DNA from: Fidelibacterota bacterium | Lineage (GTDB): Bacteria > Fidelibacterota > Marinisomatia > Marinisomatales > UBA1611 | Assembly (NCBI GenBank): GCA_028101095.1 | Contig: JAOHKG010000002.1 | Coordinates: 7,916-71,915 of the forward strand | Direction: 5' to 3' | Length of the DNA: 64,000 nucleotides | Shown here: in pieces, positions 35,827-53,997 of the stretch | How the letters are laid out: every line of letters starts with the position of its first letter | Numbering within the stretch: position 1 is the first letter of the stretch | The notes under the pieces: generated by a model | What the model saw: only the letters and a program-made list of their open reading frames with translations | Database searches by the model: none | What the model was told of the DNA's origin: nothing | Translations under genes and position numbers: made by a program

Positions 35827-36540
35827 ATGTTAGTCGAAATCCTTAAAATAATAAAAGCACTTCCTAGCCAGCATTTAATATATGGTGTTATAAGCACTGT
35901 ATTATGCATTGCTGCTGCATGGGTTTATAGCAAAAGCTCAGAAAAATTAAAAAAAATTATTATTCAAGCTGTCTCATATCTTGTTATCTTTAATGAAGTT
36001 GCATTCCAAATAAATATGGTTTTTTATGGTATTTGGTCAATAAAGACATCTCTTCCCTTAGAAATGTGTTACATCTCAGCTCTATTGATACCGTTTTACA
36101 GTATGAATAATCAATCAAGGACTCTTAAAAATTGGTTCTTTTTTGCTGGTTTTTGTGGTTCTCTTTTTGCTTTTATAAACACCAATCTATCTGAGTTTGA
36201 GCAAATATACATATCTATTCACTACTTCTTTGCGCACGGGCTTGTGATTTTCATAGCTTTTAGCATTATAGTCGATGGCTATAGGCCAGTTTGGAAAGAC
36301 TATTATAACGTAATAAAAAGGACTACCTTATTAGTCTTAATAATTATAATCCTAAATATTTTATTAGGTAGTAATTATATGTTCACGTTTGAAAAACCTG
36401 AAGGTATAAATTTTACTTTACTAATGCCCGAGTGGCCTTATTATTTTTTAATCATGTTGTTAGTTGGGCTGACTTCATATACCGTGATGATGCTATTTAT
36501 GTTTTTACCTAAAACAAATAACGCTCATAACGATCATTAG
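35827..36540 (+). CDS. Multi-pass integral membrane protein (possibly TIGR02206/YwaF-like)
   Basis: 237 aa with about 7 hydrophobic segments. The family call is tentative. Confidence 0.45.
   Translation: MLVEILKIIKALPSQHLIYGVISTVLCIAAAWVYSKSSEKLKKIIIQAVSYLVIFNEVAFQINMVFYGIWSIKTSLPLEMCYISALLIPFYSMNNQSRTLKNWFFFAGFCGSLFAFINTNLSEFEQIYISIHYFFAHGLVIFIAFSIIVDGYRPVWKDYYNVIKRTTLLVLIIIILNILLGSNYMFTFEKPEGINFTLLMPEWPYYFLIMLLVGLTSYTVMMLFMFLPKTNNAHNDH
36520..36537 (+). promoter_or_regulatory. Tandem 9-bp direct repeat (site A) upstream of the lipid-modification operon
   Basis: AACGCTCAT AACGATCAT, followed by TTGCAT/TTGACA (-35-like, 36544-36554) and the ATG at 36578. Confidence 0.5.
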
Positions 36541-36577
36541 AGATTGCATTGACAATCTTAAATTAATAGATTAGAAC

Positions 36578-37096
36578 ATGAATATAAATAACATTATAAA
36601 TATAATCGGATTTCAATTATGCTGGTGGTCTTGTGTTTTATTCGCAAAAACAGATTACTATTATACTGGCCCTTTTTTTATGGCTTGCTTCATTTTTTTC
36701 CATCTATGGAAGGTATCGAAAAAGAATTTTGAGATCAAGTTAATATTAATTTTTTCAATATTAGGTACTGTCATTGATAGTCTTATTATGCAAACAAAAA
36801 TTTTAAGTTATGAAGGGTTATATTCATCGGCTTTACCGATTGCTCCACTTTGGATAACTGCCATGTGGTGCGGCTTTGCTGCGACAGTAAACCATTCAAT
36901 GTCATGGTTGGATAAAAAATGGTTTCTCTCGGTTATTCTTGGTGCCGTATTTGGACCGTTATCCTACATTACCGCTGCAAAATTTGAAGCTATTAGTTTA
37001 TCTTCAGACATTACAATAGTTGTCGTTGTACTTGCTGTGGTATGGGGTTTGAGTATGCCTTTAATATTCTGGGTAAATGGTAAAATAAAGATTTGA
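36578..37096 (+). CDS. DUF2878-like membrane protein
   Basis: 172 aa, 4-5 TM, NIIGFQLCWWSCVLF start. Position at the head of a CFA-synthase cluster. Confidence 0.5.
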   Translation: MNINNIINIIGFQLCWWSCVLFAKTDYYYTGPFFMACFIFFHLWKVSKKNFEIKLILIFSILGTVIDSLIMQTKILSYEGLYSSALPIAPLWITAMWCGFAATVNHSMSWLDKKWFLSVILGAVFGPLSYITAAKFEAISLSSDITIVVVVLAVVWGLSMPLIFWVNGKIKI

Positions 37097-37097
37097 A

Positions 37098-37805
37098 ATG
37101 AAGCTTATACTTTTAAATAAACTTACTATTTTTATTTGTTTTCATGTCACTTGTTTATATGGAGAAATATCAAGTAATAAGTCTTATAATTTATTTAGTT
37201 CATTATTAGACGAAAAAGAATGGGTCTTGGATGAAAATATTGAAGATATAACTATAAGTAAAAAAGCTTTAAATAGTAAAAATATTTTTGCACTTAAAGT
37301 TGAGAAAAAAAGTTTTATTCCAATTCACACTATTCAAGAAGTTTTGAAAGATATAAATAGATATGATGAGTTTTTATCTAACTCAAAAACTGTGAAGTCA
37401 CTTAGGCTAAATCATTCTGATAATTGGGTTGACGCTTATCAATATATTTCAAGTAACATACCGTTTTTAAGTGACCGGAAATATTGTTTTAGAATATCAT
37501 CAGAACAAATCAATAAGGATGACTCGTTATCAATTGTACACTGGTTTCTCTTGGATCAAAATGAGTGTGATATTGTAGGTGAAATGTATGAAAATAATGC
37601 AATTTATCTTCATTTTGGAGCTGGATTATGGTTGGCCGAAAAACAAAGCGACGGTTCATCTATCATATCATATATTATTTATATCGACCCTGGAGGAGCT
37701 ATCCCAACTTTTGTAATTGACAAAGCAAATAGGATAAGCGTAACAACTATTTTAGAAGATGTTCTAACAGAAGCATCCAGACGAATTAAAAAAAGAGGTA
37801 AGTAA
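37098..37805 (+). CDS. START-domain lipid-binding protein (SRPBCC superfamily)
   Basis: 235 aa with a signal-like N-terminus. IQEVLKDINRYDEFL and IPFLSDRKYCFRI resemble START motifs. Confidence 0.55.
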   Translation: MKLILLNKLTIFICFHVTCLYGEISSNKSYNLFSSLLDEKEWVLDENIEDITISKKALNSKNIFALKVEKKSFIPIHTIQEVLKDINRYDEFLSNSKTVKSLRLNHSDNWVDAYQYISSNIPFLSDRKYCFRISSEQINKDDSLSIVHWFLLDQNECDIVGEMYENNAIYLHFGAGLWLAEKQSDGSSIISYIIYIDPGGAIPTFVIDKANRISVTTILEDVLTEASRRIKKRGK

Positions 37806-38353
37806 TGGGAAAAAAAATAAGCCGTACAACTTTCACTCTATTTCTTCTTTCTATATTTGGATGTTTGAATAGTAATCAGAATGGAGATAAAAGTATAATG
37901 AAAACAGTGGAATATGTAGATATTGAAAGATTTATGGGCGATTGGTACGTCATAGCCAACATTCCTACGTTTATTGAAAAGGAAGCTACTAATGCAATTG
38001 AATCGTATCGATTAGATAGTGATGGAAATATAGCCACAACTTTCACTTTTTTTAAAAAATCTTCTCCAGAAAAAAAAGTAAAATATACCCCCAAAGGTTT
38101 TATTGTCAATAAAAAAAGTAATGCAGAGTGGGCTATGCAATTCTTATGGCCTTTTAAATCAAAGTTTTTGATAATTAATTTAGATGAAAATTACCAAACT
38201 ACCGTTATTGGTCACCCAAGTAAGAAATATGTTTGGATTATGTCACGGAACCCCATAATTGAAGATAAAAAGTATAAATCTATATTGGATTTTCTCTCAT
38301 CTATAGGATATGATATTGCAGAAATAAAGGACGTCCCCCAAGATTGGGATTAA
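37805..38353 (+). CDS. blc: Bacterial lipocalin (Blc-like) lipoprotein
   Basis: Lipobox-like LLSIFGC. FMGDWYVIANIPTFIEKEATNAIESYRLDSDGNI lipocalin signature. Confidence 0.8.
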   Translation: MGKKISRTTFTLFLLSIFGCLNSNQNGDKSIMKTVEYVDIERFMGDWYVIANIPTFIEKEATNAIESYRLDSDGNIATTFTFFKKSSPEKKVKYTPKGFIVNKKSNAEWAMQFLWPFKSKFLIINLDENYQTTVIGHPSKKYVWIMSRNPIIEDKKYKSILDFLSSIGYDIAEIKDVPQDWD

Positions 38354-38381
38354 CCATTTCAAAGTCGTAAAGATATAAACT

Positions 38382-39632
38382 ATGAAAATTGCAATTATAG
38401 GTTCAGGTATTTCAGGGCTTACATCTGGGTACTTATTAAGTCGAAAAAACAATGTTACTGTATTTGAAAAAAATAATTACATAGGTGGACATACCCATAC
38501 TCATTCATTAGAATTTGAAAATAGAACTTATTCTGTAGACTCAGGGTTTATTGTTTACAATGAGAGAACTTATCCAAACTTTATTAAAATTTTGGATCAA
38601 TTGAATGTAAAACGCCAAATAACTAGAATGGGATTTAGTGTTAAGTCAGAAATACATGATTTAGAGTATGCCGGACATTCTTTAAATGGTCTTTTTGCTC
38701 AAAGATCTAATTTAGTAAAACCATCATATCTTAATATGCTTAGAAGTATGTTAAGGTTTAACAGGCAATCAAGAAAAGATTTAGCTATGTTAAGTCCGCA
38801 CTTAACACTCGGCCATTACCTAGAAAATAATAATTACCCTGAAACGTTTATAAAAAATTTCATTATCCCGATAGGAGCAGCGGTATGGTCAACTAAGCCT
38901 ACTGACATGATGGATATGTCTGCGATCTTTTTTATTAGGTTTTTTGAAAACCATGGAATGCTCCAAATAATTGACCGTCCTAAATGGTGGGTAATTAAAA
39001 ATGGTTCTAAATCTTATGTAAAAAGTATTACCAAAAATTTTTATAGTAAAATTAGATTATCTACTCCTGTTGTAAATGTTGAAAGAGTGGATGGTAAAGT
39101 TAGAATCAGTTCTGGAAGGAATAAGGTTACAGAAGAGTTTTTTGATGCAGTTATCTTTGCAACTCATAGTGATCAATCTTTAAAGTTATTAAAAGATCCT
39201 TCAAACCTTGAAAATGAAATTTTAAGCTCAATACCTTATCAAAATAACAAAGCTATTTTACATTATGATGATTCAATCTTACCTAAGAGAAAAAATGCAT
39301 GGTCAAGTTGGAATTATTTATTAGATAGAGATGAGAATCAGCCACTCTCACTTACCTACAATATGAATATTTTACAGGGAATAGATTGTAAAAGAACCTT
39401 CTGTGTTTCCCTTAATAGTGAGAAGTTAATTGACCCTAAAAAAATCCTAAAAACGCTTGATTATGATCATCCTTTATTCAATATTAAAGGTCTAGAAGCT
39501 CAAAAGCGAAAGCATGAGATCAGTGGGATTAATAATACTTATTATTGCGGTGCCTATTGGAGGAATGGTTTTCATGAAGATGGTGTTGTGAGTGCATTAG
39601 ATGTTTGCGCAGATTTTGGTGAATTTTTATGA
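38382..39632 (+). CDS. FAD/NAD-binding oxidoreductase (amine-oxidase/COG2907-like)
   Basis: KIAIIGSGISGLTSGY...VFEKNNYIGGHTHT dinucleotide-binding fold. Confidence 0.8.
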   Translation: MKIAIIGSGISGLTSGYLLSRKNNVTVFEKNNYIGGHTHTHSLEFENRTYSVDSGFIVYNERTYPNFIKILDQLNVKRQITRMGFSVKSEIHDLEYAGHSLNGLFAQRSNLVKPSYLNMLRSMLRFNRQSRKDLAMLSPHLTLGHYLENNNYPETFIKNFIIPIGAAVWSTKPTDMMDMSAIFFIRFFENHGMLQIIDRPKWWVIKNGSKSYVKSITKNFYSKIRLSTPVVNVERVDGKVRISSGRNKVTEEFFDAVIFATHSDQSLKLLKDPSNLENEILSSIPYQNNKAILHYDDSILPKRKNAWSSWNYLLDRDENQPLSLTYNMNILQGIDCKRTFCVSLNSEKLIDPKKILKTLDYDHPLFNIKGLEAQKRKHEISGINNTYYCGAYWRNGFHEDGVVSALDVCADFGEFL

Positions 39633-40405
39633 GTCTTTCATTAAAAAGTTATTTATATACAGGTACAATACAGCATAAAAGGTATACACCCGTCAAGCAT
39701 TTTTTTACTTATCCTTTATTTTTTGCTTATATAGACCTGGATTCTATCAGTTCAACATTAAAAAAATCATGGTTTTGGAATATTAATAAACCTGCAATTA
39801 TATCATTTAATCGAGAGGATTATCATGGAGATAAGAATACTGATTTATCATCATCTGTTCGTGATACAATTCTTGAAAAAACAGGAACCAGGCCAAATGG
39901 CCCCATTAGACTTTTAACCCACTTGAGGTATTTTGGTTATTGTTTTAATCCTGTTAGTTTTTATTATTGTTTTGACAGTGAAGATAAAGAGTTAGAAGTT
40001 ATTTTAGCAGAGGTTACAAATACTCCATGGAAAGAAAGACATGCCTATGTTATTGATAAAAAATCAAAAAAAGAGGCTCTGGCATTTGATATTGATTTAG
40101 AAAAAAAATTGCATGTAAGCCCTTTTTGGGGGATGGATCATCGTTATAAATGGATGTTCTCACCTCCGGAAAAAAAGCTATTAATAAATATGAAAAATTT
40201 TAAAGAAGAATCAAAAGTTTTTGATGCAACTTTAAAGCTAGACCGTCTACCCTTAACTAGAAAAATGCTTTTAAAACAGATAATTAAGTTTCCTTTTATA
40301 ACGATTGTAGTTGTAATGAGAATTCATTTAAATGCAATTTTACTGTGGGTTAAAAGAGTTCCTTTCCATGTACATCCAAATAAAATACAAAATGAGAATA
40401 AATAA
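39629..40405 (+). CDS. DUF1365 family protein
   Basis: YTGTIQHKRYTPVKHFFTYPLFFAYIDLD, typical of a DUF1365 N-terminus. ATGA overlap with the upstream gene. Confidence 0.75.
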   Translation: MSLSLKSYLYTGTIQHKRYTPVKHFFTYPLFFAYIDLDSISSTLKKSWFWNINKPAIISFNREDYHGDKNTDLSSSVRDTILEKTGTRPNGPIRLLTHLRYFGYCFNPVSFYYCFDSEDKELEVILAEVTNTPWKERHAYVIDKKSKKEALAFDIDLEKKLHVSPFWGMDHRYKWMFSPPEKKLLINMKNFKEESKVFDATLKLDRLPLTRKMLLKQIIKFPFITIVVVMRIHLNAILLWVKRVPFHVHPNKIQNENK

Positions 40406-40410
40406 GAATT

Positions 40411-41682
40411 ATGAACCAAAATTATCAAATAAAAGAATTAGCAGATTCAGTTAGCTCTTCGAAAAAGAGTACTTTATTATCTTCTGTTTTCAAAAAGGCT
40501 CTAATTAAAAAATTTAAAAATATTGAGATTGGGTTTATTGAGCTAATTGATAAAAATAATAAATATTATTTTGGAAAAAGTTCTGATAAGCTAAAAGCCT
40601 CTATTACTGTTAATTCCCAAGAATTTTATGTTTTTTTAGGTAGTGGTGGAACTCTTGGGGTTTCAGAATCTTATATGGCAGGATATTGGGAGTCCGACAA
40701 CTTGGTAGCTCTTTTGCAAATTGTTTTGAAAAACAGACCAGTTCTAGAATCTCTTGATTCAGGTATTGCCAAGCTAATTCAGCCAATAAACAAAAAAATT
40801 CATAAAAATCGACAAAATACTTTGAAAGGAAGTAAAAATAATATTCTAGCTCATTATGATTTGAGTAATGAGTTTTATAAACTTTGGTTGGATTCAACAA
40901 TGACTTATTCTTGTGGTTATTTCAAAAATACCCAATCTACGCTGAAAGAAGCTTCTATTGAAAAAATAGATAGAATTTGTCGGAAATTAGAGTTGTCTGA
41001 AAGTGATACCCTACTAGAGATCGGAACAGGTTGGGGCAGTTTTTCTGCTTATGCAGCGGAAAATTATGGTTGCAGTATTGTAACCACTACGATTTCGGAT
41101 GCTCAATATGAATACGCTGAATCACTTTTTAAAAAGAAAGGCTTAGAATCTAAAATTAAATTAATCAATATGGATTACCGTAAATTAGAAGGTCAATATG
41201 ATAAAATAGTTTCCGTAGAAATGATTGAAGCTGTTGGGTACCAATACATTCCAGAGTACTTAAAAAAAATTAACTTATTATTAAAACCAAACGGAAAAGC
41301 TGCGATACAAGCTATCACATATAATGACCAGAATTTTGATACTTATAAAAATTCGGTTGACTTTATTAAAAAATATATTTTCCCTGGTTCATGCCTAGTG
41401 TCACTTGCTCAAGTAATAGATGTATTAAAAGTTTACACCGACATGGCTCTAGTTGATATGGAAGATATTACTATTCATTATGCAGAAACCTTAAAACAAT
41501 GGCGAGGAAACTTCCTAGAGGTTATCCCAGAAGTTAAAAAATTAGGATTTTCAAATTCGTTTATTAAAATGTGGGAATTTTATTTTGTTTTCTGTGAGGC
41601 TGGCTTTCTAGAGCGTAATATAGGAGACATCCAAATGATTTTAGCAAAAAGTAACACAAGAGATATAAGGATTAATTATTAA
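40411..41682 (+). CDS. cfa: Cyclopropane-fatty-acyl-phospholipid synthase family methyltransferase
   Basis: HYDLSNEFYKLWLDSTMTYSCGYF and SAM motif LLEIGTGWG. Confidence 0.85.
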   Translation: MNQNYQIKELADSVSSSKKSTLLSSVFKKALIKKFKNIEIGFIELIDKNNKYYFGKSSDKLKASITVNSQEFYVFLGSGGTLGVSESYMAGYWESDNLVALLQIVLKNRPVLESLDSGIAKLIQPINKKIHKNRQNTLKGSKNNILAHYDLSNEFYKLWLDSTMTYSCGYFKNTQSTLKEASIEKIDRICRKLELSESDTLLEIGTGWGSFSAYAAENYGCSIVTTTISDAQYEYAESLFKKKGLESKIKLINMDYRKLEGQYDKIVSVEMIEAVGYQYIPEYLKKINLLLKPNGKAAIQAITYNDQNFDTYKNSVDFIKKYIFPGSCLVSLAQVIDVLKVYTDMALVDMEDITIHYAETLKQWRGNFLEVIPEVKKLGFSNSFIKMWEFYFVFCEAGFLERNIGDIQMILAKSNTRDIRINY

Positions 41683-41684
41683 TT

Positions 41685-42719
41685 ATGGTAAAAACGTTAA
41701 TTCAATTGGCTGAAAAAGGTTTAATTCCTGATTTTTTAATTAGAATTGGAATTAAAAAGTTATCCAAAGTTCGTCTTGATTGGGCTAAAAACTCTACTCC
41801 AGGTCAAGTTGCTAAAAGGCATCAAGATTGGGTTGAGACGCTTAAAAATAGTCCAATTGCACTGGTGCCAGAAAAAGCGAACGAACAACATTATGAGGTG
41901 CCTCCATCTTTTTTTAAGTATTGTTTAGGTCCTAATCTAAAATATAGCTCGGGCTATTGGCCTAAAAATGTTCATAGTCTAGAAGGCTCTGAGAATGCGA
42001 TGTTAGAACTAAGTTGTGAGAGAGCTGAAATTAGAAATGGTCATAAAATTTTAGAGTTAGGCTGTGGCTGGGGCTCACTTACATGTTTTATGGCTATGAA
42101 ATATCCTGAAAGTCATATCACAGCGGTTAGTAATTCGAAAGATCAAAAGAAGCATATTCTAAAAAGATGTGCAGAAAATCAAATTAAAAATGTTGAAGTG
42201 ATTACCGCTGATATGAATGATTTTGATATTAAAGAAAGTTTTGATAGAGTTGTTTCAATCGAAATGTTTGAGCACATGCGCAACTATAAAGTCTTATTGT
42301 CTAAGGTCGCTGGTTTTTTAAAAAGTGGAGGTAAGGTTTTTATTCATATCTTTACACATCAATTTTTAGCATACCCATTTGAAGATCAAGGTGATGGTGA
42401 CTGGATGGCTAGAGAGTTTTTCAGCGGTGGAATGATGCCATCACATAACCTTCTGTTGCACTTTCAAGAGGATGTAAAAATTGATTGTATTTGGAGATTA
42501 TCAGGGACTCATTATGAAAAAACCTCTTTAGCTTGGTTGAAAAAGATGGATAAGAATAAAAAACAAATAATTAAGATATTCAACAAAACTTATGGAGAAG
42601 ATCAGGCCCAACTTTGGTTTCAAAGATGGAGAATTTTTTATTTATCATGTGAGCAACTTTTTGGATATGAAAATGGAACTGAGTGGGGTGTTTCGCATTA
42701 CAGGTTTGTAAAAAAATAA
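41685..42719 (+). CDS. Second CFA-synthase/mycolic-acid-methyltransferase family SAM-dependent methyltransferase
   Basis: EQHYEVPPSFFKYCLGPNLKYSSGYW and SAM motif ILELGCGWG. Confidence 0.8.
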   Translation: MVKTLIQLAEKGLIPDFLIRIGIKKLSKVRLDWAKNSTPGQVAKRHQDWVETLKNSPIALVPEKANEQHYEVPPSFFKYCLGPNLKYSSGYWPKNVHSLEGSENAMLELSCERAEIRNGHKILELGCGWGSLTCFMAMKYPESHITAVSNSKDQKKHILKRCAENQIKNVEVITADMNDFDIKESFDRVVSIEMFEHMRNYKVLLSKVAGFLKSGGKVFIHIFTHQFLAYPFEDQGDGDWMAREFFSGGMMPSHNLLLHFQEDVKIDCIWRLSGTHYEKTSLAWLKKMDKNKKQIIKIFNKTYGEDQAQLWFQRWRIFYLSCEQLFGYENGTEWGVSHYRFVKK

Positions 42720-42734
42720 ATTGGATTAACATAT

Positions 42735-43451
42735 ATGTATATTTTACTTTTCATATTTTTTCATTGGTATTTCTCGCTGTTCTTTCAGACATTTTTTTTA
42801 CATAGGTATGCTTCTCATAATATGTTTAAAATGAATATGTTCTGGGAAAAAGTATTTTTCTTTTTTACTTTTATTTTTCAAGGATCCTCGTTCCTTAACC
42901 CTGCTGCATACGCGATAATGCATAGGCGTCACCACTCTTTTACAGATACAGAAAAAGACCCTCATTCACCTTTATTCATTAAAAACATTATTTTATTTAA
43001 TATTGCAACAGCGACGAGGTATAGAGAATTAGTTGAAAAGATCAATCAAGGAAGAATTAAAGAAAAAAATTTACCAAGATGGCCTTTCCTTGAAAAATTA
43101 GGGGAATCATTACTGATAAGAGCTCTTTTTATTCTTATTTATTTTAGCTTTTACTATTCATTTACGACTGCCTCCTGGCAATATATATTTTTACCTCTAA
43201 ATATTTTTATGGGGCCGCTTCATGGATTTATTGTGAACTGGTTTGGTCATAAGACGGGGTACAGAAATTTTCCTGAATTAGAAGATAATTCAAAAAACTC
43301 ATTGCCAATAGATTTTTTAATGATGGGGGAGTTATATCAGAATAATCATCACAAAAAGCCAAATGATATTAATTTTGCTAAACGTTTATTTGAAGTAGAC
43401 TTTGGATTTTTAATATCAGAATTATTTAAAAAGATGAGGATAATATATTGA
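42735..43451 (+). CDS. Membrane fatty-acid desaturase family protein (short)
   Basis: His boxes HRYASH, HRRHH and QNNHH, with hydrophobic segments. Confidence 0.7.
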   Translation: MYILLFIFFHWYFSLFFQTFFLHRYASHNMFKMNMFWEKVFFFFTFIFQGSSFLNPAAYAIMHRRHHSFTDTEKDPHSPLFIKNIILFNIATATRYRELVEKINQGRIKEKNLPRWPFLEKLGESLLIRALFILIYFSFYYSFTTASWQYIFLPLNIFMGPLHGFIVNWFGHKTGYRNFPELEDNSKNSLPIDFLMMGELYQNNHHKKPNDINFAKRLFEVDFGFLISELFKKMRIIY

Positions 43452-44338: not shown

Positions 44339-44341
44339 TAT

Positions 44342-44923: not shown

Positions 44924-44963
44924 ACTCAATTAAACTTATCACCTAATTAAAAGGATAATTAAA

Positions 44964-45305: not shown

Positions 45306-45315
45306 TTTAGAATAA

Positions 45316-45333
45316 ATCGCTCAAATCGCTCAA
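45316..45333 (+). promoter_or_regulatory. Tandem 9-bp direct repeat (site B)
   Basis: ATCGCTCAA ATCGCTCAA. Followed by TTGCTT (45341-45346), a 17-nt spacer and TATATT (45364-45369), then the ATG at 45395. Confidence 0.5.
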
Positions 45334-45394
45334 ATTTTATTTGCTTACTTTCTCTAGCTTTTATATATTTTTATATTAATAATTAAGATAAAAT

Positions 45395-46367: not shown

Positions 46368-46874
46368 TTGAAAAAAAAATATTATAGTAGTCCTATTGTT
46401 ACACTTTCTGAAGAAAATCTCAAAACCAAAAATAATAAAAGTAAAAATGTTGTAACACTAGATGCTCCTGATTGGGTCAACATAATACCGATCACGGCTT
46501 TTAATGAAGTTGTTTTTGTTGAGCAGTTAAGGTATGGAACGGGAAAAGTTACTTTAGAAATCCCTGGGGGAATGGTAGACAGTGGTGAAACAAATCAAAT
46601 GGCCGCAGAAAGAGAGTTGCTCGAAGAAACTGGTTTCCAGGTAGAAAATGTTATTGAACTTGGTAGCTTATCTCCAAATCCCGCCTTATTCACAAACAAA
46701 GTAACTAGTTATGTAGGACATAGTGCCAAAAAAAATAAAGATATTTCTTCTAATGATAAAAATATTAAGGTACATCTAATTCCAATAAAAGATGTTAATC
46801 TATTAATAAATAATGGTGAAATAGATCACGCCCTAGTCGTTGCAGCCTTTTTCCTGTTTAGGAATAGAGGGTAA
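46368..46874 (+). CDS. NUDIX hydrolase
   Basis: Nudix box GGMVDSGETNQMAAERELLEETGF. TTG start. Confidence 0.8.
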   Translation: MKKKYYSSPIVTLSEENLKTKNNKSKNVVTLDAPDWVNIIPITAFNEVVFVEQLRYGTGKVTLEIPGGMVDSGETNQMAAERELLEETGFQVENVIELGSLSPNPALFTNKVTSYVGHSAKKNKDISSNDKNIKVHLIPIKDVNLLINNGEIDHALVVAAFFLFRNRG

Positions 46875-46892
46875 AACGCTCAAAACGCTTAA
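46875..46892 (+). promoter_or_regulatory. Tandem 9-bp direct repeat (site C)
   Basis: AACGCTCAA AACGCTTAA, immediately after the NUDIX stop codon. Confidence 0.5.
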
Positions 46893-46898: not shown

Positions 46899-46928
46899 TT
46901 GACACTTATGTCCCTTATCTATTATATT
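46899..46928 (+). promoter_or_regulatory. Sigma-70-type promoter
   Basis: TTGACA (46899-46904), an 18-nt spacer, TATATT (46923-46928). AAGGAG RBS at 46940-46945 before the ATG at 46951. Confidence 0.55.
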
Positions 46929-46950: not shown

Positions 46951-47232
46951 ATGAATATTTTACAAGCAGTATCAGAAGGTGCAGATTTAAAACATGCCAA
47001 TGAGAGGCGTGAGGTTAAAAATAACTTTGACGCACGGAAAGCAGATCAAGATTTAAGAGCTTGTCCTTCGTGCAAAGCAGTCTGGGAGATTATGGTTTTT
47101 AATCAAACAATTGATTATAAATATTATCACAATTTTCCAAGATATGGTAAAAAGAGAGGCGTCTGTCCAAGCTGTGCAATTAGAACTAAGAATAAATATT
47201 ATCACAATTCAGAAGTGCTAGATCCTTCATGA
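46951..47232 (+). CDS. Small zinc-ribbon-like protein (two CPSC motifs)
   Basis: 93 aa with CPSCKAVWE and CPSCAIRT. Good RBS. Confidence 0.55.
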   Translation: MNILQAVSEGADLKHANERREVKNNFDARKADQDLRACPSCKAVWEIMVFNQTIDYKYYHNFPRYGKKRGVCPSCAIRTKNKYYHNSEVLDPS

Positions 47233-47531: not shown

Positions 47532-47554
47532 TTGTGGCAAGCGTTCAAGTGGTG

Positions 47555-47710
47555 ATGGAAAAAAATTATTGTATTGTTTCTGCCTTCGATGAAGATGCAA
47601 ACGATTTAGCTGAAAAAGTTCAACATTTGCTTTCGGATGGTTGGTCAATCTCAGGTGGAATAGCCTCCCTGAATAGTAAGCTGTATCAAACATTAGTAAA
47701 GGGTATCTAA
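47555..47710 (+). CDS. Small DUF1737-like protein (below the ORF-track size cutoff)
   Basis: 51 aa: MEKNYCIVSAFDEDANDLAEKVQHLLSDGWSISGGIASLNSKLYQTLVKGI. Its stop overlaps the next start (TAATG). Confidence 0.45.
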   Translation: MEKNYCIVSAFDEDANDLAEKVQHLLSDGWSISGGIASLNSKLYQTLVKGI

Positions 47711-48408
47711 TGAATGTATTAATTATTGGTGCTTCTGGTGGCATTGGAACTGTACTAGTTGATGACTTAGTAGACCTTTCCTTCAATCTCCTCCTTGGTT
47801 ACCGGTCAAATAAGCCGGTAATCAAATCTACTGAGTCACAGCTAGTCAATGCTGAAAGTTTTCAAGACGTCCACAATTTCGTTCAGAGTGGATTAGAAAA
47901 ATTTGGTAGGGTTGACGCAATTGTTAACTTGCCTGGAAATTTAATATTAAAACCCGCGCACCTCTGTTCAGAAGAAGAATTTTATGATACGGTCAATAAA
48001 AATTTGAAATCAGCTTTTGCTGTTGTGAGAGCTGCTGGGTCCCTCTTGAAAGACTGTTCAGTAGTTTTATTATCTACCGCTGCAACAAATATAGGTTTAG
48101 CGAATCATGAACTAATATCGAGTGCGAAAGCCGGAGTAGAAGGCCTAGCTAAATCTGCTGCAAAAACTTACGCACGCAAAAATCTTAGGTTTAATTGTGT
48201 AGCTCCGGGTTTAGTAGACACTCCGCTGTCTTCTAGAATTACAAGTAATCCCATCGCACTCAAATCAAGTCAAAAAATGCATGCTCTTGGTAGGATAGGT
48301 AAACCTAGTCATGTAAGCAACATGATAAAATTTTTAATTAAATCCGAAAATGATTGGATAACAGGCCAGAACTTCGTTGTTGATGGTGGATTATCTTCTA
48401 CAAAATAA
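47710..48408 (+). CDS. Short-chain dehydrogenase/reductase family protein (divergent)
   Basis: VLIIGASGGIG cofactor motif and NCVAPGLVDTP. The YxxxK position reads ISSAK. Confidence 0.7.
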   Translation: MNVLIIGASGGIGTVLVDDLVDLSFNLLLGYRSNKPVIKSTESQLVNAESFQDVHNFVQSGLEKFGRVDAIVNLPGNLILKPAHLCSEEEFYDTVNKNLKSAFAVVRAAGSLLKDCSVVLLSTAATNIGLANHELISSAKAGVEGLAKSAAKTYARKNLRFNCVAPGLVDTPLSSRITSNPIALKSSQKMHALGRIGKPSHVSNMIKFLIKSENDWITGQNFVVDGGLSSTK

Positions 48409-48426: not shown

Positions 48427-48750
48427 ATGAAAAAAGTAGCACTAAGAAAGAACAGGTTTGAAAAGTCAGAGTTCAAAGAGACCGAATGGACAAAAAAGTC
48501 TAAAAATCTGGGTGAATATGTATTTAGAAGAATTTCACTTGACCAGTCAGACAAATCTCTGCAGGAAGTAAGACCAAGACATATACTAAGCAAGCTCATA
48601 ATTGGCAGTGGTGAAATACAGAATTACGTTTGTGACTACCTTGCAATGGTTGAGCAACAAACTGCGGGAAGTGCTAACTATTTAAATATGGATAATGCAC
48701 CAAAAGATTTCAAAAATCTCCAAAAGAGTATAGTTGTTCCACTTTCATAG
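48427..48750 (+). CDS. Hypothetical protein
   Basis: 107-aa ORF with an AAGGAAAATAAG ATG context. No motif recognised. Confidence 0.4.
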   Translation: MKKVALRKNRFEKSEFKETEWTKKSKNLGEYVFRRISLDQSDKSLQEVRPRHILSKLIIGSGEIQNYVCDYLAMVEQQTAGSANYLNMDNAPKDFKNLQKSIVVPLS

Positions 48751-49508: not shown

Positions 49509-49516
49509 ATTTTACA

Positions 49517-51001
49517 ATGAAATTTACTTTAATCTATCCAAATCAATTATTCTATAATCACCCTGCTATTAGCAAAAATCAGCAAATTGTTCTAGTTGAA
49601 GATCCTCTTTTTTTTGGAGATACTCAATATCCTCTTAAGTTTCATAAAAAAAAAATAGTGCTTCATCTCGCTTCGATTGAATCGTTTAAAAAAGAATTAA
49701 TTGATAGAGGCTATAGTGTAATAAAATATAATTATTCTGATTTAATTGAGAAAAATCACAACATAAAATTATTAAAATCTCTGAAAGCAACAGAGATCTC
49801 CCTAGCCAGAGTAGTGGACTATACCCTAGAAAAAAGACTAGTCAAAGCAGCAAAATATCTCAAGATTAAAATTAATTGGTTTGAAACTCCAGGCTTTTTT
49901 CTAAATGCTGAAGAAGTAGTCGAAAATTTTGGTAAGAAGAAAAAATACTTAATGAACAGTTTCTATATCAATCAACGTAAAAAACTAAATATTTTACTAG
50001 ACGATAATTATAATCCAATTGGAGGAAAGTGGAGTTTTGATTTAGAAAATAGAAAAAAGCTTCCAAAGAATATTGTTATTCCAAAAATATCACAAATCTG
50101 TTACAAAAAAAATGAAATTGAAAAATCTATCAAAACTGTAGAAGATATTTTTTCTTCAAACTTAGGTACTGTAAAGAATTTTAACTTTCCAATTTCTAGG
50201 TTACAAGCTCAAAAATCATTTAGAGAATTTTTAGAAAAGAGGCTTCATTTATTCGGCGTGTATGAAGATGCCATCGCAAAAGAAAATAATTTTGTTTTTC
50301 ATAGTATTATTACCCCGTACTTAAATATTGGCTTGATTACTCCAGATGAAATAGTTAGTGAAACTTTAGAATATGCGAATCAAAACGAAATTCCTTTGAA
50401 CTCTTTGGAAGGTTTTATACGTCAAATTATTGGTTGGAGAGAATTTATAAGAGGTATTTACACTACAGATGGAGTAAGACAACGTAACGGTAATTTTTGG
50501 AAATTTAATAGAGAAATTCCCAATGCTTTTTATACTGGAGATACAGGGCTCGATCCTCTGGATAATACTATTAAACATTGCCTTGAAAGTGGATATACAC
50601 ATCATATAGAAAGACTTATGATATTAGGTAACATTATGGTTTTGTTGGGGATTAAGCCGGAATCAGTCTACAATTGGTTTATGGAGATTTTCATTGATTC
50701 TTATGACTGGGTAATGGTTCCCAATATATTTGGTATGAGCCAATACGCAGATGGAGGGCTCATGTCTACTAAGCCGTATATTAGCGGAAGTAATTATATT
50801 TTAAAAATGAGTAACTATAAAAAAGGTGAATGGAGTGAAACATGGGATGCTTTATACTGGAATTTTATTAATAAGAACAGAGAGTTTTTCAAAAAAAATC
50901 CGCGAATGAGCATGATGGTTTCTATGTATGATAGGCAAAAACTAGATAAAAAAAATCGAGATGCTTATATCGTAAAAACTTTTATAAATTCACTTTTCTA
51001 G
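49517..51001 (+). CDS. Cryptochrome/photolyase-family protein (COG3046 / CryPro-FeS-BCP-related)
   Basis: 494 aa. GWREFIRGIY, GYTHHIERLMILGN and STKPYISGSNYILKMSNY are typical of the photolyase-related COG3046 group. Confidence 0.8.
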   Translation: MKFTLIYPNQLFYNHPAISKNQQIVLVEDPLFFGDTQYPLKFHKKKIVLHLASIESFKKELIDRGYSVIKYNYSDLIEKNHNIKLLKSLKATEISLARVVDYTLEKRLVKAAKYLKIKINWFETPGFFLNAEEVVENFGKKKKYLMNSFYINQRKKLNILLDDNYNPIGGKWSFDLENRKKLPKNIVIPKISQICYKKNEIEKSIKTVEDIFSSNLGTVKNFNFPISRLQAQKSFREFLEKRLHLFGVYEDAIAKENNFVFHSIITPYLNIGLITPDEIVSETLEYANQNEIPLNSLEGFIRQIIGWREFIRGIYTTDGVRQRNGNFWKFNREIPNAFYTGDTGLDPLDNTIKHCLESGYTHHIERLMILGNIMVLLGIKPESVYNWFMEIFIDSYDWVMVPNIFGMSQYADGGLMSTKPYISGSNYILKMSNYKKGEWSETWDALYWNFINKNREFFKKNPRMSMMVSMYDRQKLDKKNRDAYIVKTFINSLF

Positions 51002-51051: not shown

Positions 51052-51069
51052 AAAGTTCAAAACGCTCAT
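51052..51069 (+). promoter_or_regulatory. Tandem 9-bp direct repeat (site D, one degenerate copy) upstream of the regulator gene
   Basis: AAAGTTCAA AACGCTCAT, followed by TTGCAT (51071-51076) and the ATG at 51112. Confidence 0.4.
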
Positions 51070-51111: not shown

Positions 51112-52008
51112 ATGAGATATCTTAATTCAAATGATGTTGCCGAAATCCTCGGAGTAAATATATCCACACTAAAAAGATGGACTGAAAACAAAACTATTCA
51201 GTGCACTAAAACTGCTGGAGGTCATAGAAAATTCACAATGCAGCATATTAGAGATTTTTATAAGTCAAATAAAGATTCTTCTAAAAATCTTGGTCTTGGT
51301 CTAGAAAAACTCAAGCATAAAAGAATTTATGATTTAATAAATAGGGCTAAATATAAAGATTTATCAGAAATATTAGCGGATTCAAGCATTGAGTCCGATG
51401 AGTTAAGTGTCAATACCATCATTAATGGGCTCTTTATGAAAGGAGTTGCTGTCGAAATTATATGCGATGAAATTGTAGAACCCGGTAGTATAATTGTTGA
51501 AAATGCCCTTAGGAATGATTATTTAAGTCATGCAGAAGCCTTTATTAGTAGAAAACTAATTACTCGAAGTGTAGAAATTTTGAATATTAGCAAACCAAAT
51601 AACACAGATAATACTCGTTCTGTATTATGTATTAACTTCGAAGACAACCTTCCTGATTTAGGTGTAGTTATGTCGGAAGCCGTTCTCCGGCATTCTGGAT
51701 TTAATGTTTTTAATACTGGTTCCCATGCTGAATTAGGAAATTTAGAAAAAGTAGTAGAGAATAAATCAATAGATTTAATTCTATTTTATTTGTGTAACAT
51801 GCAATGTTGCATGGCGACCGTTGAGCAAAATATGAGTAAAACTGAAGATCAAATCCTTAATATATTCTCACTTGTTAATAGTATGAAAAACACCAAAGTT
51901 ATATTTGGAGGCTCAGGATTGAGTCTTATGCCAAGCCTTCATGGAAAAATCGATTTAACTTTTGATACTTTTTTAGATCTTAAGTCGCTAGTCAAGAGCG
52001 TTTCCTAG
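51112..52008 (+). CDS. MerR-type HTH regulator with a C-terminal cobalamin-binding-like domain (LitR/CarH architecture)
   Basis: N-terminus YLNSNDVAEILGVNISTLKRWTE...GGHRKF. C-terminal Rossmann-like VLCINFEDNLPDLGVVMSEAVL...IDLILF...VIFGGSG. Confidence 0.65.
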   Translation: MRYLNSNDVAEILGVNISTLKRWTENKTIQCTKTAGGHRKFTMQHIRDFYKSNKDSSKNLGLGLEKLKHKRIYDLINRAKYKDLSEILADSSIESDELSVNTIINGLFMKGVAVEIICDEIVEPGSIIVENALRNDYLSHAEAFISRKLITRSVEILNISKPNNTDNTRSVLCINFEDNLPDLGVVMSEAVLRHSGFNVFNTGSHAELGNLEKVVENKSIDLILFYLCNMQCCMATVEQNMSKTEDQILNIFSLVNSMKNTKVIFGGSGLSLMPSLHGKIDLTFDTFLDLKSLVKSVS

Positions 52009-52027
52009 AAAACTTTATTATCTATTT

Positions 52028-53359
52028 TTGAGCAGGATTAGATTACTTAAAAGTGGCCAGCACTCGGGGCAAGCAGTCTTATACTGGATGGTCCGAGATA
52101 AAAGAGCCTCGGATAATCATGCTTTAATCACTGCCCAAAAAATAGCACTGAAAAATAAAGCCTCGTTAATTGTATGTTTCCAGTATGTAGGTGAATTTAA
52201 AAAAGCAAATCTAAGACAATATGAATTCTTATTTAAAGGTCTAGAGGAGACTTCTAATAATCTATCTAATTTGAATATAGACTTTCATTTATTGCAAGGA
52301 GCTGCAGAAGATGTAATTCCAAAAATAATAAACCAACTGTCTGTTGGCTCCATAGTTACAGATTACAGTCCTCTTAAAGTTTATAAAAAACGGTTAAAAA
52401 AAGTACTTGATAAAATTACTATTCCTATATGTCAAGTAGACTCCCATAATATTGTTCCAGTATGGGTTGCCTCTGAAAAAAAAGAGTTTGCAGCTCACAC
52501 AATCCGAAAAAAGATTCATAAAAGACTAGACGAATATTTGACAGATATACCAGAGTTAGTAACCCATCCTTATAATCCAAAAAATAAATCTGAACCTATT
52601 TCATGGTCTTCATTGTACAAAAATTTAACAATTGATTCCAAGATTACTTCAGTCAGTTGGATGCAACCAGGGGAAGAAAAAGCAAAAGAAAGGTTGAACT
52701 ACTTATTAAAGTCATTAAAGGATTACCATATAAATAGAAATAACCCAAATTTGAATGCACTAAGTAATTTAAGTCCATACTTTCATTTTGGGCATTTATC
52801 ACCACAAAAGGTTGCTTTCGAAATTAAAAGTTCTTCTCTACCTGAAGAAGATAAAAATGTATTCCTTGAAGAAATGATAATTCGAAGAGAATTAGCAGAT
52901 AACTTTTGTGAATATGAAAGTAAATATGATTTCTTCGAAGGGTTCCATCCTTGGGCTCAAAAAACATTGAATGAACACAGAAACGATGAAAGAGAGTATC
53001 TTTATCCGGCAGAGCAATTTGAGGAGGGCGAGACGCATGATCCTTTATGGAATGCAGCTCAACTCCAAATGGTTAAACTTGGTAAGATGCATGGTTATAT
53101 GAGGATGTACTGGGCAAAAAAAATATTAGAATGGACACCAAGCCCAGAAATTGCTATGCAAATAGCAATTGACCTCAATGATAAGTACGAATTAGATGGA
53201 AGAGATCCCAGCGGATACACTGGAATAGCATGGAGTATTGGAGGTATTCATGATAGAGCATGGTTTGAGAGACCTGTTTTTGGTAAAATACGATTTATGA
53301 ATTTTAATGGATGCAAATCAAAATTTAATGTAAAGCAATATATTGAAATGCATAGTTGA
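52028..53359 (+). CDS. phr: Class II CPD deoxyribodipyrimidine photolyase
   Basis: TTG start. VLYWMVRDKRASDNHAL, LSPYFHFGHLSPQ and MRMYWAKKILEW, as in class II enzymes. Confidence 0.85.
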   Translation: MSRIRLLKSGQHSGQAVLYWMVRDKRASDNHALITAQKIALKNKASLIVCFQYVGEFKKANLRQYEFLFKGLEETSNNLSNLNIDFHLLQGAAEDVIPKIINQLSVGSIVTDYSPLKVYKKRLKKVLDKITIPICQVDSHNIVPVWVASEKKEFAAHTIRKKIHKRLDEYLTDIPELVTHPYNPKNKSEPISWSSLYKNLTIDSKITSVSWMQPGEEKAKERLNYLLKSLKDYHINRNNPNLNALSNLSPYFHFGHLSPQKVAFEIKSSSLPEEDKNVFLEEMIIRRELADNFCEYESKYDFFEGFHPWAQKTLNEHRNDEREYLYPAEQFEEGETHDPLWNAAQLQMVKLGKMHGYMRMYWAKKILEWTPSPEIAMQIAIDLNDKYELDGRDPSGYTGIAWSIGGIHDRAWFERPVFGKIRFMNFNGCKSKFNVKQYIEMHS

Positions 53360-53394
53360 AGATTAGACTCCAATATAAAACATAACGGTTCATT

Positions 53395-53997
53395 GTGGAA
53401 AAAAAAGAAGACTCAATTAAATTTTGGGAGAATAAATACGCTCTTGATAATACAGGTTGGGATTTGAATGGTCCAACTCCTGTTTTTGATAATATTTCAA
53501 AAAATATAAAGAAAGGTAAAGTTTGTATTCTTGGATGTGGGCGTGGTTATGATGCTGTCATGTTTGCAGAAAGAGGTTTTTCTGTTACTGCAGTAGACTT
53601 TGCGCCTAGTGCTGTGGAAGCACTGAATAACTTAGTTAACAAGAAACCAAAAAATTTAACAGTACTCCAGAAAGATATATTTAGTCTTGAAAATAACTAT
53701 TTTGAATATTTTGATTATATAATAGAGCAAACTTGCTTCTGCGCAATACATCCAAAACGAAGACCTGACTATGCGAGGCTCGTTACTAATATTATTAAGA
53801 AAAATGGATACTTAATTGGTCTTTGGCTTCCTCTAAATAAAAAAATAAAAGAAGGAGGTCCCCCCTATGGAACCACAATTAAAGAGGTTAAAGCCCATTT
53901 TACTAAAAAGTGGATTGTTGATAGAGAAGAATTTTCTGAGTTCTCAATTCCTTCAAGAAAAAATAATGAAAAACTAATTATATTTAAGAAAATATGA
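53395..53997 (+). CDS. TPMT/HOL-type SAM-dependent methyltransferase
   Basis: GTG start. WENKYALDNTGWDLNGPTPVF then VCILGCGRGYDAVMFAERGFSVTAVDFAPSAV. Confidence 0.65.
   Translation: MEKKEDSIKFWENKYALDNTGWDLNGPTPVFDNISKNIKKGKVCILGCGRGYDAVMFAERGFSVTAVDFAPSAVEALNNLVNKKPKNLTVLQKDIFSLENNYFEYFDYIIEQTCFCAIHPKRRPDYARLVTNIIKKNGYLIGLWLPLNKKIKEGGPPYGTTIKEVKAHFTKKWIVDREEFSEFSIPSRKNNEKLIIFKKI

Follow-up and report, generated by a model that had tools for sequence, protein, structure and literature searches.

A conserved gene island in SAR406/Marinimicrobia

We analyzed a 64,000-nucleotide stretch of contig JAOHKG010000002.1 (assembly GCA_028101095.1), hereafter the window, from the first letter of which all positions are counted. 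It consists of SAR406/Marinimicrobia DNA and holds, on its plus strand, a gene island of ~17.5 kb (36520-53997) made up of four co-directional transcription units, A to D. Between 36.5 and 54.0 kb lie 28 closely packed open reading frames (ORFs), including a 43-amino-acid (aa) DUF2256 gene. Unit A carries lipid genes, among them two methyltransferases (MT1 and MT2), while units B to D carry photolyase-family, detoxification and small-protein genes together with the gene of a CarH/LitR-family regulator (Table 1). An earlier reading of the same DNA, the original prediction, had described the region as a photoprotection island coupling photolyase genes to an expanded fatty-acyl modification toolkit. 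All the genes that it named are present, co-directional and correctly placed according to ORF calls and Pfam, and to these we add unk162 and small ORFs of 93 aa (a zinc ribbon), 58 aa, 107 aa and 43 aa (DUF2256).

The same island, identical, occurs on at least 24 metagenomic contigs (the protein is indexed in 163 blocks, and two of the six contigs shown come from marine projects). A DUF1295 query against species-level genomes returned two loci only, L007 in an uncultured metagenome-assembled genome and L008 in a Neomarinimicrobiota metagenome-assembled genome. At ~70% protein identity, L007, L017 and L027 keep the whole series, from a TMEM164-type gene through the island to an inositol monophosphatase gene, and L016 (also ~70%) holds a reduced version. 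L008, at ~55% identity, has a compact version with UfaD, UfaO, MT1, MT2, the desaturase, DUF1295, SOUL, VOC, the 58-aa ORF, SDR, photolyase, CryPro and the regulator. Ten gene families are syntenic across three proteobacterial classes as well as in Marinimicrobia. The original prediction had asked whether the genes might be neighbors lacking conserved synteny; within Marinimicrobia, synteny extends down to ~55% identity.

Four transcription units share an operator-like motif

Four of the island's intergenic gaps of at least 37 nucleotides (nt) either hold or come immediately after a tandem 9-bp direct repeat with the consensus AWCGCTCAW AACGCTYAW. A position weight matrix (PWM) was built from the L007 and L008 sites only and then run on the 64-kb window and on 50 shuffles. 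It gave exactly four matches in 64 kb, all on the plus strand (sites A to D, Table 1), with scores of 22.8-26.0, compared to a best score of 19.5 and a mean of maxima of 13.4 in the shuffles. The sites start 58-79 nt before the start codons of the DUF2878, SRPBCC, unk93 and regulator genes. At sites A to C a -35-like TTG stands 5-7 nt behind the repeat and a TATATT-like box farther on, and at site D TTT(G) comes directly after the repeat. The best sigma-70-like promoter match of the region (TTGACA-18-TATATT, 46899-46928, 11/12) lies behind site C. Single 8-mer matches at 26449 and 62987 fell below the PWM threshold and were treated as chance.

Since a shared and conserved motif precedes each unit, we interpret the island as four transcription units under one cis element. 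The original prediction's claim of co-regulation is thereby given a concrete basis, the first site beginning at 36520, precisely where that prediction had drawn the start of the island. By synteny and motif, the island genes form one unit. The idea that they are unrelated neighbors merely sharing a strand is one that we regard as already refuted and give next to no weight. Nearly every gene from ~0.3 to 60 kb of the window lies on the plus strand, so that co-directionality is a weak argument; in this AT-rich DNA a generic promoter scan performed at chance (103 promoter-like sites vs 92 expected), and a terminator scan of the region gave no useful terminators. Against such a reading stand the synteny, which spans Marinimicrobia and, in the case of ten families, three proteobacterial classes as well, and the four conserved motif sites with none elsewhere in the window. 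The combination of conserved synteny and a phylogenetically conserved upstream motif argues for a non-random gene set.

An exact-pattern scan of metagenomes for the motif yielded 80 loci (49 of low GC content), and many of the high-GC matches resemble chance matches within coding sequence. On low-GC marine contigs the motif repeatedly stands ahead of homologues of unk93, SRPBCC, SOUL, DoxX and DUF2878, including an unk157 homologue in L066. On these contigs it also precedes two other photolyase-family ORFs, and another SRPBCC gene that directly follows a class II photolyase gene. On a low-GC marine contig (L032, 2029-3302), the same 17-bp motif sits within the 119 bp separating a proteorhodopsin gene (Bac_rhodopsin, E 1e-44) from a divergently oriented DUF2237 gene; in L037 (69-1005), the motif and then TTGCAC-17-TATATT stand ahead of a canonical CarH/LitR gene (B12-binding_2 and B12-binding domains). 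Because of these proteorhodopsin and canonical CarH/LitR contexts, we tie the motif to light physiology and to CarH-type regulators. Epipelagic Marinimicrobia have been reported to have acquired photolyases and proteorhodopsin (PMC6143742). On an unrelated metagenome contig of 38% GC (L083, 115-720), the gene of an extracytoplasmic function (ECF) sigma-70 factor lies 31 nt downstream of the motif, an arrangement that recalls the Streptomyces LitR-LitS cascade. Two further contexts may reflect chance: a family of small proteins (82-102 aa) ending ..KVS[IV]N[IV].K (L028, L052, L075 and L078), and a 425-aa ORF resembling phage terminase by eye (L089).

Table 1 Features of the island and its surroundings (positions in the window).
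Feature	Position	Strand	Evidence and remarks
TMEM164-related integral-membrane acyltransferase	35827-36540		TIGR02206 89.7 bits (cutoff 75)
Operator-like site A	36520-36537	+	AACGCTCAT AACGATCAT; PWM 25.6; 58 nt before DUF2878 gene; also in L007, L016, L017
DUF2878 membrane protein, first gene of unit A	36578-37096	+	Pfam 147 bits
START-like exported lipid-binding protein	37098-37805	+	START 23.7 bits (cutoff 22; weak); N-terminal signal-like segment
Blc-type lipocalin lipoprotein	37805-38353	+	Lipocalin_2 120 bits; lipobox LLSIFGC
Putative UfaD-type FAD-dependent acyl desaturase	38382-39632	+	Amino_oxidase 71 bits; NAD_binding_8 51 bits
UfaO-type DUF1365 protein (putative O2-dependent furan ring formation)	39629-40405	+	DUF1365 263 bits, full length
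MT1, cyclopropane fatty acid (CFA)-synthase-like methyltransferase with N-terminal domain, UfaM-type	40411-41682	+	CMAS 263 bits
MT2, short CMAS-family methyltransferase, FufM/coclaurine N-methyltransferase (CNMT)-like	41685-42719	+	CMAS 142 bits
Short acyl-CoA/acyl-lipid desaturase, stearoyl-CoA desaturase type	42735-43451	+	FA_desaturase 55 bits; His boxes HRYASH, HRRHH, QNNHH
DUF1295 membrane protein (steroid-5-alpha-reductase/ICMT-like superfamily)	43448-44338	+	DUF1295 190 bits; Steroid_dh 41 bits
SOUL-family exported ligand-binding protein	44342-44923	+	SOUL 159 bits; signal-like N-terminus
DoxX-like small membrane protein, last gene of unit A	44964-45305	+	DoxX_2 44 bits
Operator-like site B	45316-45333	+	ATCGCTCAA ATCGCTCAA; PWM 22.8; conserved in L007, L017
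SRPBCC/Bet v 1-fold protein (unk157), first gene of unit B	45395-45868	+	AlphaFold; Foldseek
unk162, exported protein	45865-46353	+	Signal-like N-terminus; conserved in L007, L017, L059, L066
NUDIX hydrolase (NudE/ADP-ribose type)	46368-46874	+	NUDIX 49 bits; NudE 63 bits, below cutoff
Operator-like site C	46875-46892	+	AACGCTCAA AACGCTTAA; PWM 26.0; conserved in L007, L008, L016, L017
unk93, CPxC...CPSC zinc-ribbon protein, 93 aa, first gene of unit C	46951-47232	+	Cys residues conserved
VOC/glyoxalase-like protein, 100 aa	47229-47531	+	Glyoxalase 22 bits (cutoff 20.6; weak); kept in L008
58-aa protein	47534-47710	+	DUF1737 21 bits, below cutoff; conserved in L007, L008
SDR oxidoreductase	47710-48408	+	adh_short_C2 136 bits
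unk107	48427-48750	+	Conserved in L007, L017
Glutathione-peroxidase-family protein with N-terminal membrane or signal segment	48750-49352	+	GSHPx 103 bits
DUF2256 zinc-ribbon mini-protein, 43 aa	49377-49508	+	DUF2256 63 bits; beside CryPro in Acinetobacter too
CryPro/FeS-BCP-family (6-4)-photolyase-like protein	49517-51001	+	DPRP 168 bits; PhrB 4dja E 9e-82 over residues 35-479
Operator-like site D	51052-51069	+	AAAGTTCAA AACGCTCAT; PWM 23.7; 60 nt before regulator gene; conserved in L007, L008, L016, L017
CarH/LitR-family regulator, MerR helix-turn-helix (HTH) and degenerate B12-binding module with Cys-rich insert	51112-52008	+	Pfam, PDB, HMMER
Class II cyclobutane pyrimidine dimer (CPD) photolyase	52028-53359	+	DNA_photolyase 94 bits; TIGR00591 595 bits (cutoff 550)
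TPMT-family S-adenosylmethionine methyltransferase, last gene assigned to unit D	53395-53997	+	TPMT 90 bits
Riboflavin biosynthesis operon (ribD, riboflavin synthase, ribBA)	60661-63461	-	7 kb downstream of the island

Unit A resembles the furan fatty acid pathway

In the published pathway, UfaM methylates cis-vaccenate, the FAD enzyme UfaD desaturates the product to a methyl-diene, UfaO (DUF1365) forms the furan ring with O2, and FufM adds a second methyl group (PMC7380195). The gene order in Rhodopseudomonas palustris is ufaD-ufaO-ufaM (RPA2571-2569), the gene after ufaO being a functional ufaM, and the function of the DUF1365 protein has been published for RSP1090 and RPA2570 (PMC7380195). 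Unit A contains the same families in the same order, in support of the link to UfaM, UfaD and UfaO drawn by the original prediction. Its candidate UfaD is an FAD/NAD-binding, amine-oxidase- or phytoene-desaturase-like protein within the size range of about 400-430 aa, occupies the position of RPA2571, and is 37-48% identical to cluster-linked proteobacterial homologues. The DUF1365 gene lies directly downstream and overlaps the ufaD stop by 4 nt; DUF1365 homologues occur in 96 plasmid or chromid records. Taken together, the UfaD-type, UfaO-type and MT1 proteins are 29-48% identical to their cluster-linked proteobacterial homologues.

To place the two methyltransferases, those of the window were compared with those of plasmid or chromid clusters from Salinivibrio, Pseudoalteromonas, Acinetobacter, Rhizobium tropici and Ralstonia, and two clean orthogroups resulted. 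MT1-type proteins are encoded directly after DUF1365 and share 33-50% identity among themselves and 32-36% with E. coli Cfa, while MT2-type proteins are encoded beside DUF1295 and share 42-49% among themselves and 22-31% with the MT1 type. MT1 of the window is 34-45% identical to the cluster-linked homologues and 32% to Cfa, and it matches UfaM by family and by its position after ufaO, the comparison running through cluster-linked homologues rather than a characterized UfaM. All six cluster-linked MT1-type proteins (window and L009-L015) have Gln (IQAIT) at the bicarbonate-ligand His266 of Cfa (LHTIG), and EAVG where E. coli Cfa has EHVG. We take the Gln only as a sign that the MT1-type proteins may be a separate subfamily.

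It seems improbable to us that MT1 is instead an ordinary cyclopropane synthase, or a dispensable paralogue like RSP1089 of Rhodobacter sphaeroides, and that membranes are hardened by cyclopropanation and desaturation with no furan rings being formed. Such a role would agree with the best solved structures of MT1, which are CFA synthases, with its best NCBIfam match (cyclopropane fatty acyl phospholipid synthase), as well as with the finding that RSP1089, although it follows ufaO, is not needed for furan fatty acids (PMC7380195). However, the NCBIfam score lies far under the equivalog cutoff (267 vs 400 bits), and MT1 groups with the cluster-linked homologues and not with E. coli Cfa, all members of its group carrying Gln for His266. 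Moreover, UfaD and UfaO have no known role other than on the UfaM product, and in R. palustris it is the gene after ufaO that acts as ufaM (PMC7380195).

MT2 is 26% identical to MT1 and 45-47% identical to orthologues beside DUF1295 in Acinetobacter, Ralstonia and Rhizobium. Among solved structures, coclaurine N-methyltransferase is its best match (6gkv, E 5e-72, vs 5e-28 for E. coli Cfa). Arabidopsis LIME1 is likewise CNMT-like. FufM has been reported to be 26% identical to UfaM, and 37.9% to LIME1. In R. sphaeroides, fufM by itself was enough to give dimethyl furan fatty acid (PMC7380195). The assignment of MT2 to the FufM type thus uses the MT1-MT2 identity and the CNMT-type best structure, compared via published identity values; a search of the literature on FufM or RPA0923 found nothing further. 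Since MT2 is CNMT-like, as is FufM, and has orthologues in known clusters, the simplest reading of unit A is the known dimethyl-furan branch.

Among the other products of unit A, DUF2878 also occurs in the Salinivibrio, Pseudoalteromonas and Ralstonia clusters, the lipocalin is 27-34% identical to lipocalins of the Acinetobacter and Ralstonia clusters, and in Acinetobacter, R. tropici and Ralstonia DUF1295 forms a pair with an MT2 orthologue. The desaturase is 46-50% identical to an 'acyl-CoA desaturase' of Leptospira and Fulvitalea, loci that are uninformative on its function because the gene stands alone there.

A CarH/LitR-family regulator without B12 ligands

The regulator encoded at the head of unit D has an N-terminal MerR-type HTH (HTH_17, 34 bits; MerR_1, 29 bits), conserved with that of the canonical L037 protein, followed by a B12-binding domain that scores 28.7 bits, below the cutoff of 32.1. 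Of the proteins with a solved structure, the best relative is a 'putative cobalamin binding protein' (PDB 8jbs, E 1.5e-11), and against the NCBIfam CarH model the regulator reaches 19.9 bits, far under 400. A full HMMER pass over 1.84 billion representatives retrieved 643 relatives, most of which, where full-length, carry the CarH signatures Wx9EH and axial His. So does the canonical CarH/LitR of L037, which is 25% identical to the window regulator and has a well-conserved HTH. In the window regulator the class I signature Wx9EH and the lower axial His are missing, with VENALRNDYLSHAEAF and FEDNLPDLG at those places. SAR406 orthologues and the closest relatives share FEDNLPD[IL]G and an 8-residue insert, FYLC[ND]xQCC (FYLCNMQCC in the window). 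Because its relatives are mostly canonical and the signatures are replaced here, we regard the protein as a derived, B12-ligand-less member of the CarH/LitR family. Among 89 full-length representatives, P0254, P0255, P0263 and P0266 make up a tiny B12-ligand-less subclade lacking the Trp of Wx9EH and the axial His; P0263 retains the EH pair, and all of the subclade but P0266 have the insert.

The apparent order of MerR HTH, helical bundle and Rossmann-like B12 domain is that of the class I CarH/LitR repressors of Thermus, Myxococcus, Bacillus and Streptomyces, which are adenosylcobalamin (AdoB12) photoreceptors, but W, EH and His are missing from the window protein and the four cluster representatives closest to it, which carry the 8-residue Cys-rich insert. 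CarH of Thermus binds tandem direct repeats that reach the -35 element. With site D lying 60 nt before its own start codon and being conserved in five lineages, autoregulation is predicted, and the regulator most likely binds the repeats beside the -35 element, those before its own gene included.

LitR proteins of classes II and III need no B12 for their response to light, which goes via a LOV partner or an unknown chromophore (PMC9758184). One possibility, which concerns regulation only and is compatible with the proposed pathway, is that a photo-oxidant (we considered singlet oxygen, peroxide and lipid electrophiles) switches the regulon through the regulator's cysteines, rather than light being perceived directly. 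We rate this as a serious possibility, though somewhat on the doubtful side of even. It would account for the loss of Wx9EH and axial His together with the shared FYLC[ND]xQCC in the regulator and its closest relatives, and it would be in line with the Rhodobacter, Rhizobium and Pseudoalteromonas clusters, which are under singlet-oxygen-responsive sigma-E/ChrR. In V. cholerae, moreover, control mediated by reactive oxygen species via MerR and ChrR has been proposed (PMC5241685). On the other hand, the regulator has its ancestry among B12 photoreceptors, a canonical B12-type CarH/LitR gene stands behind the same operator, the class II and III precedents show that B12 is dispensable for a light response, and two photolyase-family flavoproteins encoded beside the regulator are candidate photoreceptors. 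No match to a sigma-70 or ChrR-type family was found among the predicted proteins of 24-64 kb scanned against Pfam.

A bolder variant would have this CarH-type subclade exchange B12 photochemistry for a new mode of sensing, through the C-x3-CC insert or a photolyase-family partner, and drive a single SAR406 operon whose own desaturase would supply the chains for furan, or further modified, fatty acids. We consider this rather unlikely, but worth stating for its consequences (see below).

Photorepair, detoxification and small proteins

The CryPro protein is assigned by its DPRP N-terminal domain, photolyase FAD-binding domain and full-length similarity to PhrB. None of the four Cys ligands of the [4Fe-4S] cluster is present in the window protein or in its orthologues in L007 (16097-17581), L008 (9196-10623) and L017 (17726-19216), and all four SAR406 proteins have a 10-residue deletion at the Cys-rich loop, while the Acinetobacter and Ralstonia homologues retain the Fe-S cysteines. 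The second photolyase is of class II, as the original prediction had it: its TIGR00591 score exceeds the cutoff, and the best structures are the class II enzymes of M. mazei (2xry, E 3e-138) and rice (3umv, E 2e-128). In L007 and L016 a TPMT-family gene also follows the photolyase gene, with a sulfatase gene between it and the inositol monophosphatase gene in L016.

The protein unk157 has no Pfam match, and the 'SRPBCC-like' label given to it before holds at the level of structure: its AlphaFold model (predicted local distance difference test, pLDDT, 90.8) matches Bet v 1/PR-10/SRPBCC structures with a Foldseek probability of 1.0 and template modeling scores of 0.5-0.6. An NCBI entry identical to it is labelled 'Candidatus Marinimicrobia bacterium'. 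The zinc-ribbon protein unk93 is 92% identical in L007, compared to about 70% for neighboring genes, and forms 29 clusters only among 5.8 billion proteins; its AlphaFold model is poor (pLDDT 65.5). Pfam and NCBIfam gave no match for unk162 and no significant family for unk107 and the 58-aa ORF. An SDR is also found in the Rhodobacter, Pseudomonas and Vibrio-type clusters.

Flanking regions

Upstream of the island lie genes for a TPR protein, glycosyltransferases, a C25 peptidase, a DsbD-like protein, DUF5916 and the TMEM164-type acyltransferase, and downstream those for inositol monophosphatase, ThyX and 2-oxoacid dehydrogenase E1, followed by the riboflavin operon on the opposite strand. All related Marinimicrobia contigs have the TMEM164-type gene immediately upstream of the island; we place this gene outside the motif-defined units because site A falls within its 3' end. 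FAD and the lumazine antenna that CryPro proteins use derive from precursors made by the riboflavin operon, and the PWM scan of the window found no motif site at this operon.

The GC content is ~33% for the window and ~30.5% across the island; units A and B (36000-46000) have ~30.5%, against 33-37% over most of the window. The conserved flanks in relatives argue against recent transfer, and the idea of a recently transferred mobile element was rejected, since all related contigs have the same flanks (C25 peptidase, DUF5916 and TMEM164 upstream, inositol monophosphatase and ThyX downstream) and no mobility genes are present. An Rfam search of the window returned no matches, which rules out riboswitch involvement.

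Relation to known light-stress clusters

Published homologous clusters bear out the original prediction's connection to RpoE-ChrR and LitR regulons responding to light or singlet oxygen (PMC7380195, PMC9758184, PMC5241685). In Rhodobacter the cluster belongs to the singlet-oxygen sigma-E regulon (PMC7380195), and light raises the expression of phrB and ufaM 25- to 33-fold in P. mendocina (PMC9758184). Compared to the pathway of Rhodobacter (Cereibacter) sphaeroides and R. palustris, the island has the same CMAS, FAD amine-oxidase-like and DUF1365 families, ordered as RPA2571-2569, a second CMAS methyltransferase as distant from the first as FufM is from UfaM (~26% identity), and an associated SDR (RSP1087 in Rhodobacter). 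It differs in uniting all the genes, the FufM-type methyltransferase, desaturase and DUF1295 among them, in one operon, in its proposed CarH/LitR-type rather than sigma-E/ChrR control, in its non-phototrophic FCB-group host, and in being known from genes alone.

A LitR-family gene stands beside photolyase, SDR, FAD oxidoreductase, ufaM and cryB (CryPro) genes in the island as in P. putida and P. mendocina (class II LitR) and Burkholderia multivorans (class III) (PMC9758184). Common to these systems are also a regulator gene that is itself part of the regulon and the loss of B12-binding capacity. The island regulator, however, appears to keep the full two-domain CarH architecture, with substituted ligands and a Cys-rich insert, whereas class II proteins keep the helical bundle only and the C-terminus of class III has no similarity to any known functional domain (PMC9758184). 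The island further differs in its operator of two 9-bp direct repeats, in its class II photolyase where those clusters have class I PhrB, and in lacking a LOV partner or folE gene.

The operon of Vibrionaceae and Alteromonadales (L009, L010), which blue light induces in V. cholerae (PMC5241685), reads (MerR or sigma-E/ChrR)-DUF523/DUF1722-phrB-NTF2-SDR-FAD oxidoreductase-DUF1365-CFA-DUF2878-(CHI-like)-DUF3833. It shares with the island a co-directional set of photolyase, ufaD-ufaO-MT1 core, DUF2878, SDR and small lipid-binding folds, but is devoid of MT2, DUF1295 and desaturase, and its accessory folds are NTF2, chalcone-isomerase-like and DUF3833 where the island has START, lipocalin, SOUL and SRPBCC. 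Clusters on an Acinetobacter plasmid (L011), a Rhizobium tropici plasmid (L014) and a Ralstonia megaplasmid (L015) hold an 'expanded' set like that of the island: lipocalin, acyl-CoA desaturase, FAD oxidoreductase, DUF1365, MT1, DUF1295, MT2, DUF2878, NUDIX, DUF2256 and CryPro. There, DUF1295 precedes MT2, as opposed to MT2-desaturase-DUF1295 here; the regulators are MerR with FolE, sigma-E/ChrR or two-component; CryPro keeps its Fe-S cysteines; and SOUL, START, DoxX and SRPBCC are absent. The five proteobacterial clusters (Salinivibrio, Pseudoalteromonas, Acinetobacter, R. tropici and Ralstonia) also encode photolyases and a MerR-type regulator or sigma-E/ChrR. Specific to SAR406 relative to these five are the short stearoyl-CoA-desaturase-type enzyme, START-like, SOUL, DoxX and SRPBCC proteins, unk162, unk93, unk107, the peroxidase, the class II photolyase and the TPMT-like methyltransferase; several SAR406-specific proteins carry signal or lipoprotein sequences.

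The 'expanded toolkit' is therefore a widespread conserved set, the same families being present in proteobacterial clusters, and the step from enlargement to a novel pathway taken by the original prediction does not follow. That prediction saw in the enlarged toolkit a possibly novel pathway of acyl-chain modification and trafficking; that an undescribed modification, different from mono- and dimethyl furan fatty acids, is made and trafficked here we consider unlikely. The dedicated short desaturase, of a type that stands alone in Leptospira and Fulvitalea, could set another double-bond position, DUF1295 belongs to a reductase/methyltransferase-like membrane superfamily with no known role in the published pathway, and START-like, SOUL, DoxX, unk157, unk162, unk93 and unk107 have no counterpart in the five clusters examined. 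Yet in Acinetobacter, Ralstonia and Rhizobium the ufaD-ufaO-MT1 core already has MT2, DUF1295, DUF2878, lipocalin and a desaturase beside it, MT2 belongs to the type that FufM is reported to be, and fufM is by itself enough for the dimethyl product in R. sphaeroides (PMC7380195). Nothing in the sequence requires new chemistry, and novel lipid chemistry is not supported. The island is a variant of a known light-stress module, not a new pathway; what is new is the lineage, the operator motif, the B12-ligand-less CarH/LitR-derived regulator with its Cys-rich insert, and a CryPro devoid of Fe-S cysteines.

A probable photo-oxidative-stress regulon

We consider it probable, with some reserve, that the region is a photo-oxidative-stress regulon of epipelagic SAR406 that would combine furan fatty acids, detoxification and DNA photorepair in four operons. 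Unit A would remodel membrane acyl chains to furan fatty acids that scavenge singlet oxygen and radicals. The stearoyl-CoA-desaturase-type enzyme may supply cis-monoenoic chains, as family membership and operon position suggest; MT1 would then methylate the double bond, the UfaD-type enzyme would make the conjugated methyl-diene, the UfaO-type protein would insert O2 and close the ring, and MT2 would add the second ring methyl. For these four later steps we rely on family, gene order and the published Rhodobacter and Rhodopseudomonas genetics. The DUF1295, DUF2878, START-like, lipocalin, SOUL and SRPBCC-fold proteins probably handle or carry modified or oxidized lipids, and trafficking by the lipid-binding folds is plausible, since several of them carry signal or lipoprotein sequences. 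Units B to D would add detoxification (glutathione peroxidase, SDR, VOC and NUDIX) and photorepair (class II CPD photolyase, and the Fe-S-less CryPro with DUF2256). By analogy with the published clusters, the regulon would be induced either by light through a partner protein or by an oxidant that light generates and that acts on the regulator's conserved cysteines.

Several points weigh against this interpretation. Pathway and induction are both deduced from published work on homologues, and orthology to UfaM, UfaD, UfaO and FufM is indirect, through family, gene order, cluster-linked homologues and published identities. The position of MT1 after ufaO is no proof of UfaM function, because R. 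sphaeroides has in that very place a CFA-like gene, RSP1089, that it does not need for furan fatty acids, with the true UfaM encoded at another locus (PMC7380195). A delta-9 desaturase would give ring positions unlike those of the characterized 9M5/9D5 products. Finally, the regulator lacks the residues for B12 photochemistry, so that its responsiveness to light is an assumption. A search of the literature on diel expression of these genes in SAR406, or on flavobacterial parallels, found nothing usable.

Furan fatty acids are potent scavengers of radicals and singlet oxygen, accumulate in fish and are discussed as health-relevant lipids, and the bacterial producers known to date are cultured Proteobacteria. 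That at least 24 contigs of marine metagenome assemblies carry the full gene set, dimethyl branch included, suggests a planktonic source that has been overlooked. The interest of the island lies in its abundant uncultured host, in the conserved operator of two 9-bp repeats, which defines a regulon that can be traced in metatranscriptomes without cultivation, and in unusual cofactor losses: the B12-ligand-less CarH derivative and the Fe-S-less CryPro suggest an economy of cofactors (no cobalamin, less iron) in an oligotrophic lineage. If the rather unlikely scenario of a new mode of sensing coupled to the island's own desaturase were true, ring positions or derivatives not yet described would be expected, and SAR406, among the most abundant uncultured lineages of the ocean, would be a quantitatively important source of furan fatty acids for marine food webs.

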